NCBI GenBank assembly: GCA_025699765.1
Contig: GCA_025699765.1_4134.1
Length of the DNA: 47,489 nucleotides
Reading direction: 5' to 3' (one strand)
Source: a phage
The stretch's first letter is position 1. Every line of letters starts with the position of its first letter. Under the pieces are notes generated by a model. That model saw only the letters and a program-made list of their open reading frames with translations, had not been told where the DNA came from and made no database searches. The position numbers and the translations under genes were made by a program. Below, one piece after another: positions 26,605 to 31,522 of the stretch.

Positions 26605-26633
26605 ATAGTACAATTGTTAATTATGTCTGTCAA
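26605..26633 (-). promoter_or_regulatory. Sigma-70-like promoter (minus strand)
   Basis: On the minus strand TTGACA, 17-nt spacer, TACTAT. The leader downstream contains the inverted repeat GTGAGA-tgat-TCTCAC. Confidence 0.35.
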
Positions 26634-27115
26634 CTGATTCCGTGATTTTTATGAAACCCATTAACAATTCTAAACCTCATGGCGGCATCTCCAGCGTCTT
26701 TAGCGTTATGAAATCTTCCTACAGTATGAGTGACTCCATTAATCTTAACTTTAGCTATGAATTTACCACTCACAGTATCTAGGTGAACTCCGCAGAATCC
26801 TGTTTTATTAGATTTCTTTAACTTGACGTTTTTCATATTTTTAGAATGAGAAACTATCCTTAAATTATCAATCCTGTTATCTGCTTTGTCGTGATTTATG
26901 TGATCTACCTCCATCCCTTCCGGTATAGATCCAAAATGAATAATCCATGCCACACGGTGAGCCAACCATTGCTCATTACCTAAACTTAACTTTATGTACC
27001 CGTTCTTAAATTTTGTGGTGTTCTCCTTTCTGTTCCACCTGTTTAATATAACTCCAGTTTTTGGATTGTATATGTACAATGAATTAAAATATGATTGACT
27101 AGTCATTTGCCTCAA
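26630..27115 (-). CDS. HNH homing endonuclease with AP2-like domain
   Basis: HNH core (EVDHINHDKADNRIDNLRIVSHSKN) followed by an AP2-type segment (TGFCGVHLDTVSGKFIAKVKINGVTHTVGRFHNAKDAGDAA). Confidence 0.8.
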   Translation of the reverse strand: MRQMTSQSYFNSLYIYNPKTGVILNRWNRKENTTKFKNGYIKLSLGNEQWLAHRVAWIIHFGSIPEGMEVDHINHDKADNRIDNLRIVSHSKNMKNVKLKKSNKTGFCGVHLDTVSGKFIAKVKINGVTHTVGRFHNAKDAGDAAMRFRIVNGFHKNHGIS

Positions 27116-27302: not shown

Positions 27303-27532
27303 TATTCGTAATCCCCTTCTTTGTTACCTACGCGCCCGGCAATATACCCGGCAGTCCAGACAAATTTGTAGCGATCGATTAGTAATTCGACCTTTTTGTG
27401 GTGAGCAGAAATAACGTCAATCATGATCTTGTCGTTTTTCCGATCTTCTTTTTTCATGCCACTGACGAATTTATTTAATTCCTTCGCCGCGCGCTTTACC
27501 ACGTTCCATTCCGCTTCACTTAAACCGAACAT
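27302..27532 (-). CDS. Hypothetical protein, 76 aa
   Basis: ORF in the operon with start/stop overlap to its neighbours. Confidence 0.45.
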   Translation of the reverse strand: MFGLSEAEWNVVKRAAKELNKFVSGMKKEDRKNDKIMIDVISAHHKKVELLIDRYKFVWTAGYIAGRVGNKEGDYE

Positions 27533-27876
27533 TATTTACCTCTCCCAAATGAAAAATTAGCACCTAAAACCTGATTGCAAACTGATTCCATGTATCGCAA
27601 CTGATATTGAGCAACCTTTGAAGGACTTAATTCATCGGTAAATAAATCCTCAACGTTGATTTCTTTTTTATGCTTGCGCTTCCATGCATTGATGATATTT
27701 GGCAAGATGCGCTCGCTCTTCCAGGCTGCAAACTCAGATTGATTCGTTGATGCTGGGGTAAGCTGCCTTTCGATCTGGTTAAGAAGTTCAGCGGTAGCGC
27801 ATTTGATGTGTAACTGGTCGCCGATCGTATCCAGGATTTCACGAGCTTGCTTCTCTGACAGGTTAATCGTAATCAT
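27532..27876 (-). CDS. Hypothetical protein, 114 aa
   Basis: ORF in the operon; the antisense-frame ORF at 27627-27842 is rejected. Confidence 0.5.
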   Translation of the reverse strand: MITINLSEKQAREILDTIGDQLHIKCATAELLNQIERQLTPASTNQSEFAAWKSERILPNIINAWKRKHKKEINVEDLFTDELSPSKVAQYQLRYMESVCNQVLGANFSFGRGK

Positions 27877-28082
27877 GCCTCTTCTCCATCTTCCTCGATC
27901 GGGGTAAAAAACTGCGTGTTAACTGCCGGATTGTAATAAACTCCTTCTTCATAGTCGCTTTCTTTCACTTCAATGAAAACGTCGCAACCGTCATGCATGA
28001 AATCACCGTTGTCAGTATGAACCAGTTCGAATACCTCGGAAGTTTTAGTGCAAGTAAAAAACTTATCAGTTGATACCATCAT
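27873..28082 (-). CDS. Hypothetical acidic protein, 69 aa
   Basis: First ORF downstream of a palindrome-bearing promoter region. Confidence 0.45.
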   Translation of the reverse strand: MMVSTDKFFTCTKTSEVFELVHTDNGDFMHDGCDVFIEVKESDYEEGVYYNPAVNTQFFTPIEEDGEEA

Positions 28083-28154
28083 TTTGATTTTCTCTCTTCG
28101 TTGTCGATGAGGTAACTATATCAAATCACCCCATCGACGTTTTAGCAATTCGTG

Positions 28155-28727
28155 CTATTTATTGATGAACGTGGCGGCTATGTGCTGAGCGGTAATTTCT
28201 GGATGACCTTCGACAGAAAAGAAGTCACACTCCTGATAACCGTTGACACCGATCATATCGTCAAGATAGATATAGTCGCGGCTGTCGTTGTCAAAGTTGC
28301 AACCGTTGCGATGGATTCGACACAGCTTGACCTGGATGTCACCTTCAATCATCTGCAAGATCTCGTCTTTGAATCCACCGTCAGTAAATACCGAAAGTGA
28401 ATGCGACTCTTTCACCTTGCTTTCCGCTCGCATACCGAAGAAGCGATTTCCGAACTGCGGCTTGATGACCTCCTCGCTAATCCAGATCATAAACTGGCGC
28501 GGGCTTTTACCGTTCAGGATTGATGCTGGCTCTTCTTTATATCGACGGTCCTCATACAAGAACATGAAATACTCGTAGTTAGCTTCACCCAGGATTGCCC
28601 GGGCAATCTCAAACATTGGCGCTTTGAAGCTGCGTAGCGCTACATGATCGTAAGTGTCAGCCAGGATGCATCCGATAGTGTCCTTTCCTGCGCCAGGCGC
28701 GCCGTTTAAAATGATAGCTGTTTTCAT
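28155..28727 (-). CDS. Deoxynucleoside monophosphate kinase-like P-loop protein (T4 gp1-like)
   Basis: Walker A GAPGAGKDT and an NGKSP motif, both resembling T4 gp1 dNMP kinase (recalled from memory). Confidence 0.6.
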   Translation of the reverse strand: MKTAIILNGAPGAGKDTIGCILADTYDHVALRSFKAPMFEIARAILGEANYEYFMFLYEDRRYKEEPASILNGKSPRQFMIWISEEVIKPQFGNRFFGMRAESKVKESHSLSVFTDGGFKDEILQMIEGDIQVKLCRIHRNGCNFDNDSRDYIYLDDMIGVNGYQECDFFSVEGHPEITAQHIAATFINK

Positions 28728-28835
28728 GTTAGCATCTCCCTAAAAATAATTTTGCCATATTGATGATAGTGTGATTGATGATTAACAGGATGATAACCGT
28801 CAATACCGGATGTGCTGAAATAAATTCGTACAGGT

Positions 28836-29369
28836 TCATTCATCTACCCCGTGAGATTTTAAATGACTGTGAACGTTATCGCCATAGTCAACTACAGCGT
28901 AAGTGGTTATCCCAAGCGATCTGAATTTTTTTATTATATTCACTGAGTCATCCCAAGCCGCAAGAATGTTTTCAATGCCGATCGCGCGAACCGCCTCCTC
29001 TTTCATCACCGTATCTTTCCGGTTATCGGTGCGCGGACGCATAATCAGGTAATCATATCGCGCACCGTGATGCTTAAGCCATAACTCAGATGCGTAACGC
29101 ACCTCATCACTTCGCCCGGTTAAAATTATTACATGATATCCAGCGGCAAACATGGAGTTCATCACATCGATCGTGCTTTGGATAGGGTTGTCAAATATTG
29201 CAGCGCGGTTAAACTCGGACCAGCTTTCGGTTAAGTGCAAATCCTTTGTAGGTAGCAGGTGAAGTCGACCAGATCCATCGCTAAGTGTTCCGTCAAAGTC
29301 AAAGATTGCTACGCGGCGCGGGCCGAGAAACAGGTTGATTGTCTGGCCCCAAATTGTGATTTTATCCAT
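28836..29369 (-). CDS. HAD-family phosphatase resembling the 3'-phosphatase domain of T4 polynucleotide kinase
   Basis: HAD motif I AIFDFDGTL; further matches to the T4 Pnk phosphatase domain (ILTGRSDE vs VVSGRE; DNRKDTVMKEE vs DTRKDDVVKEE), recalled from memory. Confidence 0.65.
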   Translation of the reverse strand: MDKITIWGQTINLFLGPRRVAIFDFDGTLSDGSGRLHLLPTKDLHLTESWSEFNRAAIFDNPIQSTIDVMNSMFAAGYHVIILTGRSDEVRYASELWLKHHGARYDYLIMRPRTDNRKDTVMKEEAVRAIGIENILAAWDDSVNIIKKFRSLGITTYAVVDYGDNVHSHLKSHGVDE

Positions 29370-29409
29370 GATTTATTCCTCTGATTGGTACATCATTTTT
29401 AACTTGGGG

Positions 29410-29535
29410 TTGCGAGGCTACGGTCTACGTTTGCCCCTTCCTTCCTAATGGGTTTTCCCAAGTCAATTTGCTTCGAGGTTTGCGCGGCTCCGGTATACGT
29501 TTGCCGCTTCCTTCTTTTGGGTTTGCCACGAAGCG
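29410..29535. repeat. Tandem imperfect direct repeat (2 x ~60 bp) in the leader of the phosphatase/kinase operon
   Basis: ttgcgaggctacggtctacgtttgccccttccttcc... and ttgcgcggctccggtatacgtttgccgcttccttct... are about 85% identical and adjacent. Confidence 0.5.
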
Positions 29536-29537
29536 TT

Positions 29538-29594
29538 TCGATGGAGTAACTATATCAAGATGCCACGATCCGGTTTTAACAAAAAGTGCTATTC
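29538..29594. repeat. 57-bp exact repeat, copy 1, promoter-like element
   Basis: tcgatggagtaactatatcaagatgccacgatccggttttaacaaaaagtgctattc; the second exact copy is at 31549-31605. Contains TAACA-N5-TGCTA and ACTATA. Confidence 0.7.
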
Positions 29595-29794
29595 GTTTTA
29601 ATAGTGATGCAAAAATAATTTTTTAAGCACGTCACCACGCGCGCTGAATCGACTTGTGGGAGCCTTAAAATCTCGTGGACCAATTGCACTGCCGACACCT
29701 CAGATTTGTAGTAGTGGGCGATTCTGGAGGTATTTGGGCGCATTCCTTCCACTGCGTCGCGTGCTGCATCTTCTGCTGTCATGATAGTAGCCAT
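29576..29794 (-). CDS. Hypothetical ORF, 72 aa (weak)
   Basis: Track ORF whose 3' end overlaps the repeat element; coding status uncertain. Confidence 0.25.
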   Translation of the reverse strand: MATIMTAEDAARDAVEGMRPNTSRIAHYYKSEVSAVQLVHEILRLPQVDSARVVTCLKNYFCITIKTNSTFC

Positions 29795-29903
29795 AAAACA
29801 CCCTTAAGAGATAATGTCAGGATCAGGAGGCAAAATAGCAACCCCTGAAATGATGGCGGCTCGTTATTCCAGTTAGAAAAGTCTGGCATAGTGTTTTCTC
29901 CAA

Positions 29904-29936
29904 AAGAAAGGGGAACCGTTCAGAGCCGATTCCCCA
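29904..29936 (-). terminator. Hairpin (ggggaa...ttcccc) plus U-rich tail
   Basis: Stem-loop immediately downstream of the 29943 gene stop on the minus strand. Confidence 0.4.
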
Positions 29937-29942
29937 TTAGCA

Positions 29943-30317
29943 TTACATGATGAACAACAGCGAAATCGAAGCGACCAAGAGAACAAGAGCGATAGCCAAA
30001 CCAGACAAATCTGCCTTCTCTTCAAACTTCAGCGCTGGCTTACGGTCAACTTCCGACGGCTTGACGTTGTTGATCTTGTTAGCTGCAACATTGCCATTGA
30101 CGCTGAAAGTGCGCTTGCGCTTCTTGCCGAACGTTGCGAACTTAGTGCCGCCGCTATTCCATCGAAGACCTTCGCCATTATGCGTTACGGTTGCAATGCG
30201 GTGTCGGCCCGTGTCGTCGGTCAGCGCTACGGTGTGCTTTGCGTGCTCAGTGGGCACGTCGTAGATTTTGCCAACAGTAAATTTTTTGGTGTTATCACTG
30301 ATACATTCGAATTTCAT
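29943..30317 (-). CDS. Tail-anchored membrane protein, 124 aa
   Basis: C-terminal hydrophobic anchor (LSGLAIALVLLVASISLLFIM). Start refined to MKFECIS with AAAGAGG site; the track ORF extends to a GTG at 30467 with a weaker site. Confidence 0.5.
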   Translation of the reverse strand: MKFECISDNTKKFTVGKIYDVPTEHAKHTVALTDDTGRHRIATVTHNGEGLRWNSGGTKFATFGKKRKRTFSVNGNVAANKINNVKPSEVDRKPALKFEEKADLSGLAIALVLLVASISLLFIM

Positions 30318-30576
30318 GAATTTTACCTCTTTATTATGCAGTTGGTTGATTTCTTCGATTGCGTCTTTAAATTTAACACCATCTACGATTCGATGAAAGA
30401 TATATTTTGAACTACCGCCATACGGAAGAAAAATTTCCTGATATTCGCGACGACGGACAATGTTCACATTTCAGCCGTTCTCATCAGCAATGATAAAACT
30501 ATCATCACTCACTCTAGCGCCTTCATACACCTCCCCCACTTGAAACCAGATCCGCTACTTGATACACATTCAAATT

Positions 30577-30864
30577 TCATGGTCTAACCTTCCTGTAAGG
30601 TTTGATTGATAACATCACGTACTGCGTGAAGTCGCATTCTTGCTCGTCATACCCGCGATTGATGTATGGCGTCACATCAGTAACATCAGATACCCTGGCA
30701 TGCACTTCCCACCCGGTAAACTCATCCCGATCGAACTCGCATAGCTCCAGGATATCGCCAGGCTGGAAGTTGCGGTCATTAATGCGGAACTCTGCCGTTT
30801 TTGTTCCGTTCATTACTCCGATGAAATGTACAGGAGCGATTTTTAACTTATGAGTTTTTCTCAT
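30577..30864 (-). CDS. DUF3850 / ASCH-like (PUA-fold) domain protein
   Basis: HKLKIAPVHFIGVMNGTKTAEFRINDRNFQPGDILEL matches the DUF3850 pattern H-x-LKI-x-P-x-YF...K-x-FE-x-R-x-NDR-x-FQ-x-GD. Confidence 0.55.
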   Translation of the reverse strand: MRKTHKLKIAPVHFIGVMNGTKTAEFRINDRNFQPGDILELCEFDRDEFTGWEVHARVSDVTDVTPYINRGYDEQECDFTQYVMLSIKPYRKVRP

Positions 30865-30971
30865 AGCTGATTCCTCTGATTGGTTGCTTTGCTTCAATAA
30901 GGCCACTATATCAAATGGCCTTGCGGAATGTTTAGCAATTTGTGCTTAGTAATTTTATGGCTTTATATTAA

Positions 30972-31271
30972 TCAATCAGGTTCGCGAGGCTTGTAGTTAA
31001 AACGATGCCAGCTTGTTCTTAGTTCTATTTGTTCGTAACTATCCCTACGCTCAGCGAAGCCAAGCTCCACAGCTAACGCGTGCAATTCATGTTTCCGCTT
31101 TATCTGTGCCATTCCAAGCCAGTCTGCGTCTGCATTACGCCGTTCACACTGCTTCGGGGTCATATCGTTGAAATCTTTTTCGCTTAGCTTCTGCTGCCGT
31201 TTTGTGTCGGCTTTCATGTCGCGCAGATGTTTAATCATCTTGTCAATCTTACTGATAGTATATTCTGTCAT
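30972..31271 (-). CDS. Hypothetical protein, 99 aa
   Basis: ORF in the early operon downstream of a palindrome-bearing region. Confidence 0.5.
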   Translation of the reverse strand: MTEYTISKIDKMIKHLRDMKADTKRQQKLSEKDFNDMTPKQCERRNADADWLGMAQIKRKHELHALAVELGFAERRDSYEQIELRTSWHRFNYKPREPD

Positions 31272-31309
31272 GTTAACCTCTGCGCCCGGCTTTCGCTGGG
31301 CTTTGAATA

Positions 31310-31522
31310 TTACATTGGCGGTTGTACTCGGAAGAATTCAAAATCTTTCAGTGTGGCAAGTTTCAACTTATCTTTACTGGTGATCACTTTTGGTTCTTCC
31401 GACCAGCTGGCTCCGAGTTGCGGCTTGCTTGCCAGAACACCTAATACCTCAGGTTGTTCGTCGAGCACGTAGCCAAATGTGTGGCCGTTCATTACGTAGT
31501 AAGTTGCGTTGTTGAATTTCAT
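31310..31522 (-). CDS. Hypothetical protein, 70 aa
   Basis: Start refined to MKFNNATYY with GAGG site; the track ORF extends upstream through the 57-bp repeat. Confidence 0.5.
   Translation of the reverse strand: MKFNNATYYVMNGHTFGYVLDEQPEVLGVLASKPQLGASWSEEPKVITSKDKLKLATLKDFEFFRVQPPM

Follow-up and report, generated by a model that had tools for sequence, protein, structure and literature searches.

The window analysed here (the whole stretch of 47,489 nucleotides, contig GCA_025699765.1_4134.1) derives from a T1-like phage, a Tunavirus with 93% nucleotide identity to Tunavirus Shfl1, and holds two adjacent minus-strand genes, one for a stand-alone HAD phosphatase and one for a P-loop kinase. 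To judge from the sequence, the two would form a conserved nucleotide-salvage module of T1-like phages and not a tRNA-repair system, a reading to which we assign a probability slightly above even (about 0.55). The locus itself is a known T1-like early-gene pair whose products have been annotated before as PNK and dNMP kinase (PMC11447400, PMC13164509). In phage TLS the products carrying these annotations are Gp09 and Gp14, respectively (PMC11447400), and a role in 'enhancing nucleotide supply' has been ascribed to the pair (PMC13164509).

Layout of the locus

The open reading frames for the kinase, the HAD phosphatase and a DUF3850 protein are all present at the coordinates given below, each on the minus strand, and are genuine genes rather than chance open reading frames. 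Homologues of the kinase number 1431 among phage records and those of the HAD protein 2324. The features of the region are as follows.

28155..28727, minus strand: P-loop kinase, 190 aa, most likely of the T4 gp1/T5 Dnk (dNMP kinase) superfamily; orthologous to a protein whose annotation reads 'similar to T1p62'
28728..28835, minus strand: spacer of 108 nt between the HAD and kinase genes, holding the kinase ribosome-binding site GGGAG
28836..29369, minus strand: stand-alone HAD phosphatase, 177 aa, Pnkp-phosphatase family, without a kinase domain; orthologue of T1 'pnk'
29407..29514, no strand assigned: 38-nt direct repeat in two copies, inside the 206-nt spacer that precedes the HAD gene and has no ORF
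29576..29794, minus strand: 72-aa ORF (phrog_11330), between the HAD and DUF3850 genes
29910..29935, minus strand: terminator-like hairpin from a consensus scan, 9-bp stem and T-rich tail, just past the end of the 174-aa ORF
29943..30467, minus strand: 174-aa ORF (phrog_10580) with a hydrophobic C-terminal tail, between the HAD and DUF3850 genes
30577..30864, minus strand: DUF3850/ASCH-like (PUA-like) protein, 95 aa (PF12961; phrog_986; PDB 3IUW)

The kinase gene starts with ATG, with GGGAG placed 8 nt upstream, and the HAD gene starts with ATG preceded by GAGGA and encodes the motif FDFDGTL. At least one deposited annotation begins the HAD gene downstream of this catalytic DxDxT motif, and databases widely name the 177-aa product 'polynucleotide kinase' despite its having no kinase domain. 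The repeat-bearing spacer upstream of the HAD gene folds unremarkably (z -1.3), and an Rfam scan of positions 27800-31400 gave no match. The hairpin at 29910-29935 would part the DUF3850 unit from the HAD-kinase unit. The boundaries of the operons are uncertain, because the promoter and terminator scan yielded no more sites than are expected from shuffled sequence.

The earlier note on this DNA had drawn the DUF3850/ASCH-like protein, encoded a few genes away, into one cluster with the two enzymes. Its family assignment stands, since PF12961 matches the 95-aa protein at 58.8 bits against a cut-off of 22.9 and PDB 3IUW matches it with an E-value of 8.7e-7, but its place in the cluster does not. 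The gene lies within 4 kb of the kinase in 15 of 80 kinase loci, all from close Tunavirus relatives, and it is absent from the other genera among these loci and from the loci of Webervirus, Guernseyvirinae and Ahphunavirus. Two unrelated ORFs (72 and 174 aa) and the terminator-like hairpin separate it from the HAD gene. DUF3850 is an independent accessory gene, a neighbour and not a conserved partner of the pair. For its start, a GTG at 30906 was rejected, as it has no ribosome-binding site and the ATG at 30864 has one.

The phosphatase and the kinase

The HAD protein is, as had been proposed, a Pnk-like phosphatase encoded by a separate gene directly upstream of the kinase gene. The HAD_PNKP profile (PF25109) matches it at 59.2 bits, the cut-off being 27.6, in an alignment that spans positions 3-141 of the 143 in the profile, and the protein is 91% identical to the product of phage T1 'pnk' (P0085). 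The Pnkp catalytic set is kept, with D24, D26, T84, K123 and D141 corresponding to D165, D167, S211, K258 and D278 of the T4 enzyme, and D24, D26, K123 and D141 are invariant in a nine-sequence alignment (A4). In T4 Pnkp the DxDxT motif provides the nucleophile and the acid, the Ser/Thr and Lys contact the phosphate and the last Asp binds Mg (PMC3592404). The residues that align with Arg176, Arg213 and Arg246 of T4 Pnkp/Pnkp1 are conserved as well, and the predicted fold is nearest to solved Pnkp phosphatase domains.

This closeness to T4 Pnkp and Pnkp1 in sequence and fold, with all catalytic residues kept, favours an alternative in which the two proteins form a split, sometimes fused, end-healing system. 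At breaks in DNA or RNA, the phosphatase would remove 3'-phosphates or 2',3'-cyclic phosphates, the gp1-like kinase would have been recruited to phosphorylate 5'-OH ends and a host ligase (LigA for DNA) would do the sealing, so that the pair would counter host nucleases as a non-orthologous analogue of Pnkp. We consider this unlikely, on account of the kinase and of the genomic settings described below.

The HAD protein has relatives outside the Pnkp family. The next-nearest folds are relatives of the class B/C acid phosphatases, which are nucleotidases, and plant VSP1 and Nir2 LNS2 score nearly as well as Pnkp. The weaker profile matches are to acid phosphatase B (PF03767, 27.4 bits), to LNS2/lipin-like families and to generic HAD families. 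Given these matches and the great diversity of substrates among HAD phosphatases, the two genes might serve unrelated processes, the kinase being a dNMP kinase and the HAD protein acting on a substrate other than a nucleotide (sugar phosphate, lipid or phosphoprotein, for instance), with adjacency reflecting shared early expression only. Such a division of roles is also improbable, as HAD_PNKP is the best family match and lies well above its cut-off, and the linkage of the two genes argues against it as well.

A conserved, family-specific insertion of about 20 aa, HRLHLLPxxDLxxTESWxEFN, follows motif I of the HAD protein and is absent from T4 Pnkp, whose core is capless and leaves the site open to polynucleotide ends. 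Eight of its residues (L38, L39, P40, H45, T47, W50, F53 and N54) are invariant, and it is modelled at low confidence, with pLDDT below 50 for residues 42-53. The position after motif I is where HAD enzymes place substrate-selecting caps.

The kinase has an N-terminal P-loop of the GxxGxGK(D)T type, GAPGAGKDT at residues 9-17, in which G14, K15 and D16 vary little or not at all across the family alignment. It is most likely a nucleotide kinase of the T4 gp1/T5 Dnk type, an assignment drawn from profile comparison and a predicted structure. T4 gp1 (PDB 1DEK) is the best fold match of the predicted structure, with 171 of 190 residues aligned, ahead of other P-loop kinases. By hhalign, the comparison with T4 gp1 gives 94% over 176 columns, which indicates homology beyond the P-loop, and that with T5 Dnk gives 96% over 50 columns; an earlier run with a narrow kinase alignment (A1) had reached the N-terminal 74 columns only, at 77% probability. 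The identity with gp1 is only 12%, and the gp1 segment PDTRQDHE aligns with TDGGFKDE in the kinase, so that the Asp and Glu are retained and the Arg is replaced by Gly. Phrog_139 matches the kinase with an E-value of 2.4e-46. No curated Pfam or NCBIfam family scores above threshold for the kinase, and HMM searches of PDB sequences with it returned P-loop matches only and did not retrieve 1DEK.

The earlier suggestion that this kinase is closer to T4 gp1 than to the Pnk kinase domain is borne out. In the structural comparison that had been proposed, the phosphatase falls nearest to the Pnkp phosphatase and the kinase nearest to 1DEK. The likeness to the T4 Pnk kinase is confined to the P-loop and that to dNMP kinases spans the full length, which speaks against end-healing. 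K35, located after strand 2, is invariant in the kinase family; at this position T4 Pnk has Asp35, which we take to be the catalytic residue for hydroxyl phosphorylation, and the difference weighs against end-healing too.

Linkage, genomic context and a proposed role

The two genes are linked beyond the T1-like phages as well. Among 80 related kinase loci, 71 have an HAD gene upstream of the kinase gene and in its orientation, at a distance of 200 bp or less in 45, and the same order, HAD then kinase, recurs in three further lineages, namely Webervirus, Guernseyvirinae and an Autographiviridae phage. In other lineages the genes abut or overlap, as opposed to the 108-nt spacer found here. Natural fusion proteins occur with the HAD domain N-terminal and the kinase C-terminal (P0218 and P0234), one of them on three contigs. 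The constancy of this order across four phage groups, despite relocation within the genomes, and the existence of fusions are difficult to reconcile with unrelated processes, to which the nine of 80 kinase loci with no HAD gene nearby and the many phage lineages carrying the kinase alone lend some weight. Linkage and fusion also suit the end-healing alternative, since a fused phosphatase and kinase is precisely how end-healing enzymes such as bifunctional Pnkp are built, and this is a point against salvage. Eukaryotic PNKP, a DNA end-repair enzyme, has the phosphatase before the kinase, the same order as here. In Webervirus and Ahphunavirus the pair comes after a 'DNA repair exonuclease' or phosphoesterase gene, which may be counted in favour of end-healing, and in the Autographiviridae phage it adjoins exo- and endonuclease genes.

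The settings of the separate homologues point towards nucleotide metabolism. Kinase homologues with no adjacent HAD gene are found near thymidylate synthase (thyA) and ribonucleotide reductase (RNR) genes in a Vequintavirus, and beside RNR, a thioredoxin-like gene and nucleoside 2-deoxyribosyltransferase in a Lahexavirus; such company counts against end-healing. In Krischvirus FL38 an HAD gene of the stand-alone type directly follows nrdAB and overlaps the end of nrdB, a position that is at odds with a role unrelated to nucleotides. The same phage additionally encodes a full Pnkp and an RNA ligase, so the stand-alone HAD protein is not simply a Pnkp substitute, and this again disfavours end-healing. 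The earlier note had recognised no RNA ligase in the window, and tblastn of the window agrees in giving no match to T4 Rnl1 or to a DNA ligase of the T4 type; the annotation of the relative phiL likewise lists no ligase among 78 CDS. That no RNA or DNA ligase was found in the window or in this annotated relative is a further point against end-healing. That the pair is an unrecognised end-healing enzyme, arisen apart from Pnkp by way of a dNMP-kinase fold and used with a host ligase by T1-like, Jersey-like and some T7-like phages against damage from defence nucleases, seems a little more doubtful still.

Of the two roles that the earlier note had offered, salvage fits the thyA, RNR and nrdAB contexts better and end-healing is less favoured. 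Salvage is preferred because relatives of the kinase adjoin thyA, RNR and deoxyribosyltransferase genes, because the HAD gene follows nrdAB in Krischvirus FL38 and because T1 is reported to reuse host nucleotides. For both T1 and TLS, breakdown of host DNA and reuse of its nucleotides are reported (PMC11447400).

We infer the substrates of the two enzymes and their coupling as follows. Both genes would be expressed from the minus strand alongside other early genes, the first giving a stand-alone DxDxT phosphomonoesterase of the Pnkp-phosphatase clade and the second a P-loop nucleotide kinase of the T4 gp1/T5 Dnk type. T1-like phages bring neither a DNA polymerase nor a ribonucleotide reductase, and they dismantle the host chromosome. 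The kinase would turn the released 5'-dNMPs into dNDPs, which host NDP kinase would convert to dNTPs. The HAD protein may act on nucleotides or on short products of nuclease digestion (3'-dNMP, pdNp or 3'-P-terminated fragments, for example), stripping them of 3'-phosphates or of other phosphomonoesters that block them, and the dephosphorylated products could then join the same salvage line. It counts against this coupling that a nucleoside, the product of a phosphatase, cannot serve an NMP kinase as substrate, so that a bisphosphate or polynucleotide intermediate, itself speculative, would be needed. A gp1-like dNMP kinase supplies TMP kinase activity in vivo (PMC10653934). Searches of the literature for experiments on T1 pnk or T1p62 turned up papers on genome annotation only. 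The retron Eco2 paper was rejected as evidence on pnk, its mention being of T4 PNK as a reagent, and the RloC paper was rejected as evidence on T1, which it cites in its reference list only.

The genes lie in the early region with small accessory genes around them, a location that might also suit an anti-defence function, in which the pair would destroy or divert immune signals derived from nucleotides, or would replenish nucleotide pools depleted by defence systems such as dNTPases or deaminases. The phosphatase of T4 Pnkp opens 2',3'-cyclic phosphates (PMC3592404), and a dNMP kinase could help to restore depleted dNTP pools. The pair occurs in nearly all Drexlerviridae and is not patchily distributed, and the papers searched held no experimental hint of such a function, which makes it very improbable. 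Reconstitution of NAD+, as in the phage NARP pathways, was considered and rejected, since neither protein has a profile or fold match to enzymes of that kind.

If the salvage reading is true, the pair helps to explain how T1-like phages, which lack a polymerase and RNR, draw their dNTP supply from the breakdown of host DNA. The study of TLS could not identify the early gene products that degrade the host genome (PMC11447400). The HAD-kinase fusions, the coexistence of the HAD protein with a full Pnkp in Krischvirus and the cap-like insertion make the question of substrate directly testable in a classic phage; they leave the picture of the locus itself ordinary and known.

Comparison with known systems

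The genes described here have direct orthologues in phage T1 pnk (P0085) with its adjacent T1p62-type kinase and in TLS Gp09 and Gp14, with the same order and the same early-region position, and the kinases of T1-like contigs are about 99% identical to this one. Differences from the T1-like relatives are found in the spacer, which is 108 nt here and 190 or 487 nt in some of them, and in the surroundings, as the small ORFs upstream are others in the window and an additional HNH endonuclease lies downstream.

The kinase is likened to T4 gp1 and T5 Dnk, phage enzymes through which dNMPs enter DNA synthesis. It shares with gp1 (1DEK) the fold, the P-loop GxGKDT and profile homology past the P-loop, but is about 50 residues shorter, the large insertion being that of gp1.

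The nearest characterised relatives of the phosphatase are T4 Pnkp (PseT; 1LTQ, 5UJ0) and bacterial Pnkp1 (4XRP), which are nucleic-acid end-healing enzymes. Unlike these, the phosphatase here is accompanied by neither a kinase domain of the Pnk type nor a partner ligase, and the HAD protein bears the insertion after motif I, to which the Tunavirus protein adds an N-terminal hairpin. The class B/C acid phosphatases and plant VSP (HAD subfamily IIIB; PF03767) are secreted or periplasmic and larger, and the HAD_PNKP model fits the protein far better (59 bits). With respect to tRNA repair by T4 PseT and Rnl1, the locus differs in having no Pnk-type 5'-OH kinase domain and no partner RNA ligase found in the window or in the phiL annotation. 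The fused forms P0218 and P0234 resemble eukaryotic PNKP in the order of HAD phosphatase and P-loop kinase.

Gene layout around the HAD-kinase pair

The window is a Tunavirus genome (Drexlerviridae), from a T1-like siphophage. The 5 kb around the genes for a stand-alone HAD phosphatase and a P-loop kinase share 93% nucleotide identity with Shigella phage Shfl1 and match 294 phage records. The pair, two intervening ORFs and a gene for a DUF3850 protein all lie on the minus strand, and the coordinates given for this cluster in an earlier note are the exact gene ends of the called ORFs.

28155-28727, minus: kinase, 190 aa
28836-29369, minus: HAD phosphatase, 177 aa
29576-29794, minus: intervening ORF, 72 aa
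29943-30467, minus: intervening ORF, 174 aa, phrog_10580
30577-30864, minus: DUF3850 protein, 95 aa

The kinase, HAD and DUF3850 genes alike have a Shine-Dalgarno-like sequence and an ATG; the GTG at which the DUF3850 ORF could alternatively start lacks one. A 14-nt sequence that includes the ribosome-binding site, CCAATCAGAGGAAT, is identical at 29375-29388 and 30870-30883 (minus strand), where it precedes the ATG of the HAD and DUF3850 genes, respectively. The sequence may represent a cassette for translation initiation common to both genes, or else mark a junction where mosaic modules recombined. The ORF-free spacer just upstream of the HAD gene (29370-29575) also holds two copies of a 38-nt direct repeat (29407-29444 and 29477-29514; 87% identical, 70 nt apart). 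The repeat-bearing segment of about 200 nt is present in four phage records only, and the Shfl1 copy lies at another genome position, annotated as the opposite-strand CDS Shfl1p06; the spacer gave no Rfam match and a fold z-score of -1.3.

The product of the 174-aa ORF has a hydrophobic, membrane-anchor-like C-terminal tail, and the hairpin after this ORF (29910-29935) is the only strong terminator-like one on the minus strand in the region. Downstream of the kinase block, a minus-strand gene (26630-27115) encodes a 161-aa HNH_3 homing-type endonuclease (PF13392, E 1e-20), and the corresponding place holds no gene in the relatives Shfl1 and Shigella phage phiL. At 27532-27876 (minus) is encoded a 114-aa protein with a strong DUF7180 match (PF23805, E 5.5e-31), a conserved T1-like early protein annotated 'similar to T1p60' in relatives.

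Relationships of the two enzymes

The HAD protein scores 59.2 bits against Pfam HAD_PNKP (cut-off 27.6), with lower-scoring matches to acid phosphatase B and generic HAD families, and matches phrog_415 (E 3.5e-65). The nearest solved structures by sequence are Pnkp1 (4xrp, E 6e-7) and T4 Pnkp, the T4 polynucleotide kinase-phosphatase. Residues D24, D26, T84, K123 and D141 align with D165, D167, S211, K258 and D278 of the T4 protein, which provide the nucleophile, general acid-base, phosphate contacts and Mg ligand (PMC3592404), while R35, R86 and R111 align with R176, R213 and R246. Unlike T4 Pnkp, the protein has no kinase domain, which bears out the earlier description of a lone Pnk-type phosphatase and makes its widely used product name, 'polynucleotide kinase', a misnomer. 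It also differs in carrying about 20 extra, strongly conserved residues after motif I (HRLHLLPxxDLxxTESWxEFN), of which L38, L39, P40, H45, T47, W50, F53 and N54 are invariant among 28 homologues. The structure prediction of this insertion is of low confidence. Its position is that at which HAD enzymes carry substrate-selecting cap elements, and a similar cap-like role may be envisaged here. The deposited CDS of the phiL orthologue (L001 3209-3616) is just 408 nt; since that start loses the DxDxT motif, it is probably mis-called, and the start that yields 177 aa is the credible choice.

Searches of the kinase against curated Pfam and NCBIfam models gave none above threshold; it matches phrog_139, 'deoxynucleoside monophosphate kinase' (E 2.4e-46), and its AlphaFold model is confident (pLDDT 95). 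A profile of 69 diverse representatives, drawn from a full-library search that returned 4940 representative clusters at E <=0.001, was compared by hhalign with T4 gp1 (whole-length alignment, 94% probability, E 1.3e-7) and T5 Dnk (96%, E 2.9e-9), whereas the alignment with T4 Pnkp is limited to the 25-column P-loop. The earlier claim that the kinase resembles gp1 more closely than it does the kinase domain of Pnk is thus correct. The SFxKPxxExAxxILG segment after strand 2 is common to the family and T5 Dnk. Identity with gp1 is just 12%, and the arginine of the gp1 PDTRQDHE segment is not conserved.

Linkage, fusion and the likely function of the pair

The closest kinase homologues are encoded at 80 viral-contig loci. 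In 71 of these, the HAD gene lies no more than 2.2 kb upstream in the same orientation, and in 45 of the 71 the gap is 200 bp or less, the genes often overlapping. The pair has relocated as a unit. In Webervirus-like Klebsiella phages it has a 'DNA repair exonuclease' gene on one side and the lysis genes on the other, a placement also described in a 2026 paper on T1-like phages (PMC13164509). The same order occurs in a Guernseyvirinae phage (kinase 40% identical) and in an Autographiviridae phage (36%), in the latter after exonuclease, endonuclease and phosphoesterase genes. Two representatives are natural fusions, P0218 (403 aa; L091 6001-7212, on a 60.8-kb Logan contig) and P0234 (461 aa; L092 498-1883), with an insertion-bearing HAD_PNKP domain at the N-terminus and a T1-type kinase at the C-terminus, the reverse of the domain order in T4 Pnkp; P0218 is found on three contigs, one of them phage-like and 60 kb long. 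The conserved synteny, the relocation and the fusions point to a functional coupling of the two enzymes, which they support well.

The 95-aa neighbour is a bona fide DUF3850/ASCH-like member by sequence, a domain for which a recent preprint describes phage-enriched fusions to ParB-CTPase folds (10.1101/2025.10.10.680097). Its family stands as first proposed, but its inclusion in the cluster does not: just 15 of the 80 loci, all close Tunavirus relatives, have it alongside the pair, and in the window two unrelated ORFs and the terminator-like hairpin stand between them. It is best left out of the module.

The closest characterised relatives of the HAD protein are end-healing enzymes and a phosphatase-kinase fusion is the classic end-healing architecture. 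Both facts weigh against a simple salvage reading, so a split analogue of Pnkp has to be kept as a live rival. However, Escherichia phage FL38, a T4-like Krischvirus, has a stand-alone, insertion-bearing T1-type HAD gene that overlaps the end of nrdB, and within a few kb its genome holds genes for a full-length Pnkp and an RNA ligase as well (L008 2998-3474, L093 4456-5334), indicating that the HAD protein is not simply standing in for the phosphatase of Pnkp. Homologues of the kinase that lack a HAD neighbour lie next to thymidylate synthase and ribonucleotide reductase (RNR) genes in a Vequintavirus; in a Lahexavirus their neighbours are RNR, a thioredoxin-like gene and a nucleoside 2-deoxyribosyltransferase. 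No ligase was detected in the window by tblastn with T4 Rnl1 and T4-type DNA ligase queries, in agreement with the first reading, and none is annotated in a complete relative. T1 and TLS reportedly break down the host genome and recycle its nucleotides, and they have no DNA polymerase of their own (PMC11447400); genetic evidence shows that a gp1-like dNMP kinase supplies TMP kinase activity (PMC10653934). Together these observations favour nucleotide metabolism, one of the two functions entertained before, over tRNA or nucleic-acid end repair, which appears improbable. The pair would then be a nucleotide-salvage module, a reading to which we assign a probability of about 0.55, the substrate of the HAD protein being its weakest link.

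Comparison with the known T1 genes

The pair consists of known T1 genes at a locus already described. A protein 91% identical to the HAD phosphatase carries the name 'polynucleotide kinase [Escherichia phage T1]', the label 'similar to T1p62' is given to neighbouring genes in relatives, and both the TLS re-annotation and the KanT1 paper treat the pair as PNK and dNMP kinase tied to nucleotide supply (PMC11447400, PMC13164509). The genes seen in the earlier note are confirmed, and its interpretation holds in part. New here are the fusion proteins, the presence of the HAD protein beside a full Pnkp in one phage, the insertion conserved in the HAD family and the counts of shared gene order; they sharpen a testable question but leave the locus an ordinary one.
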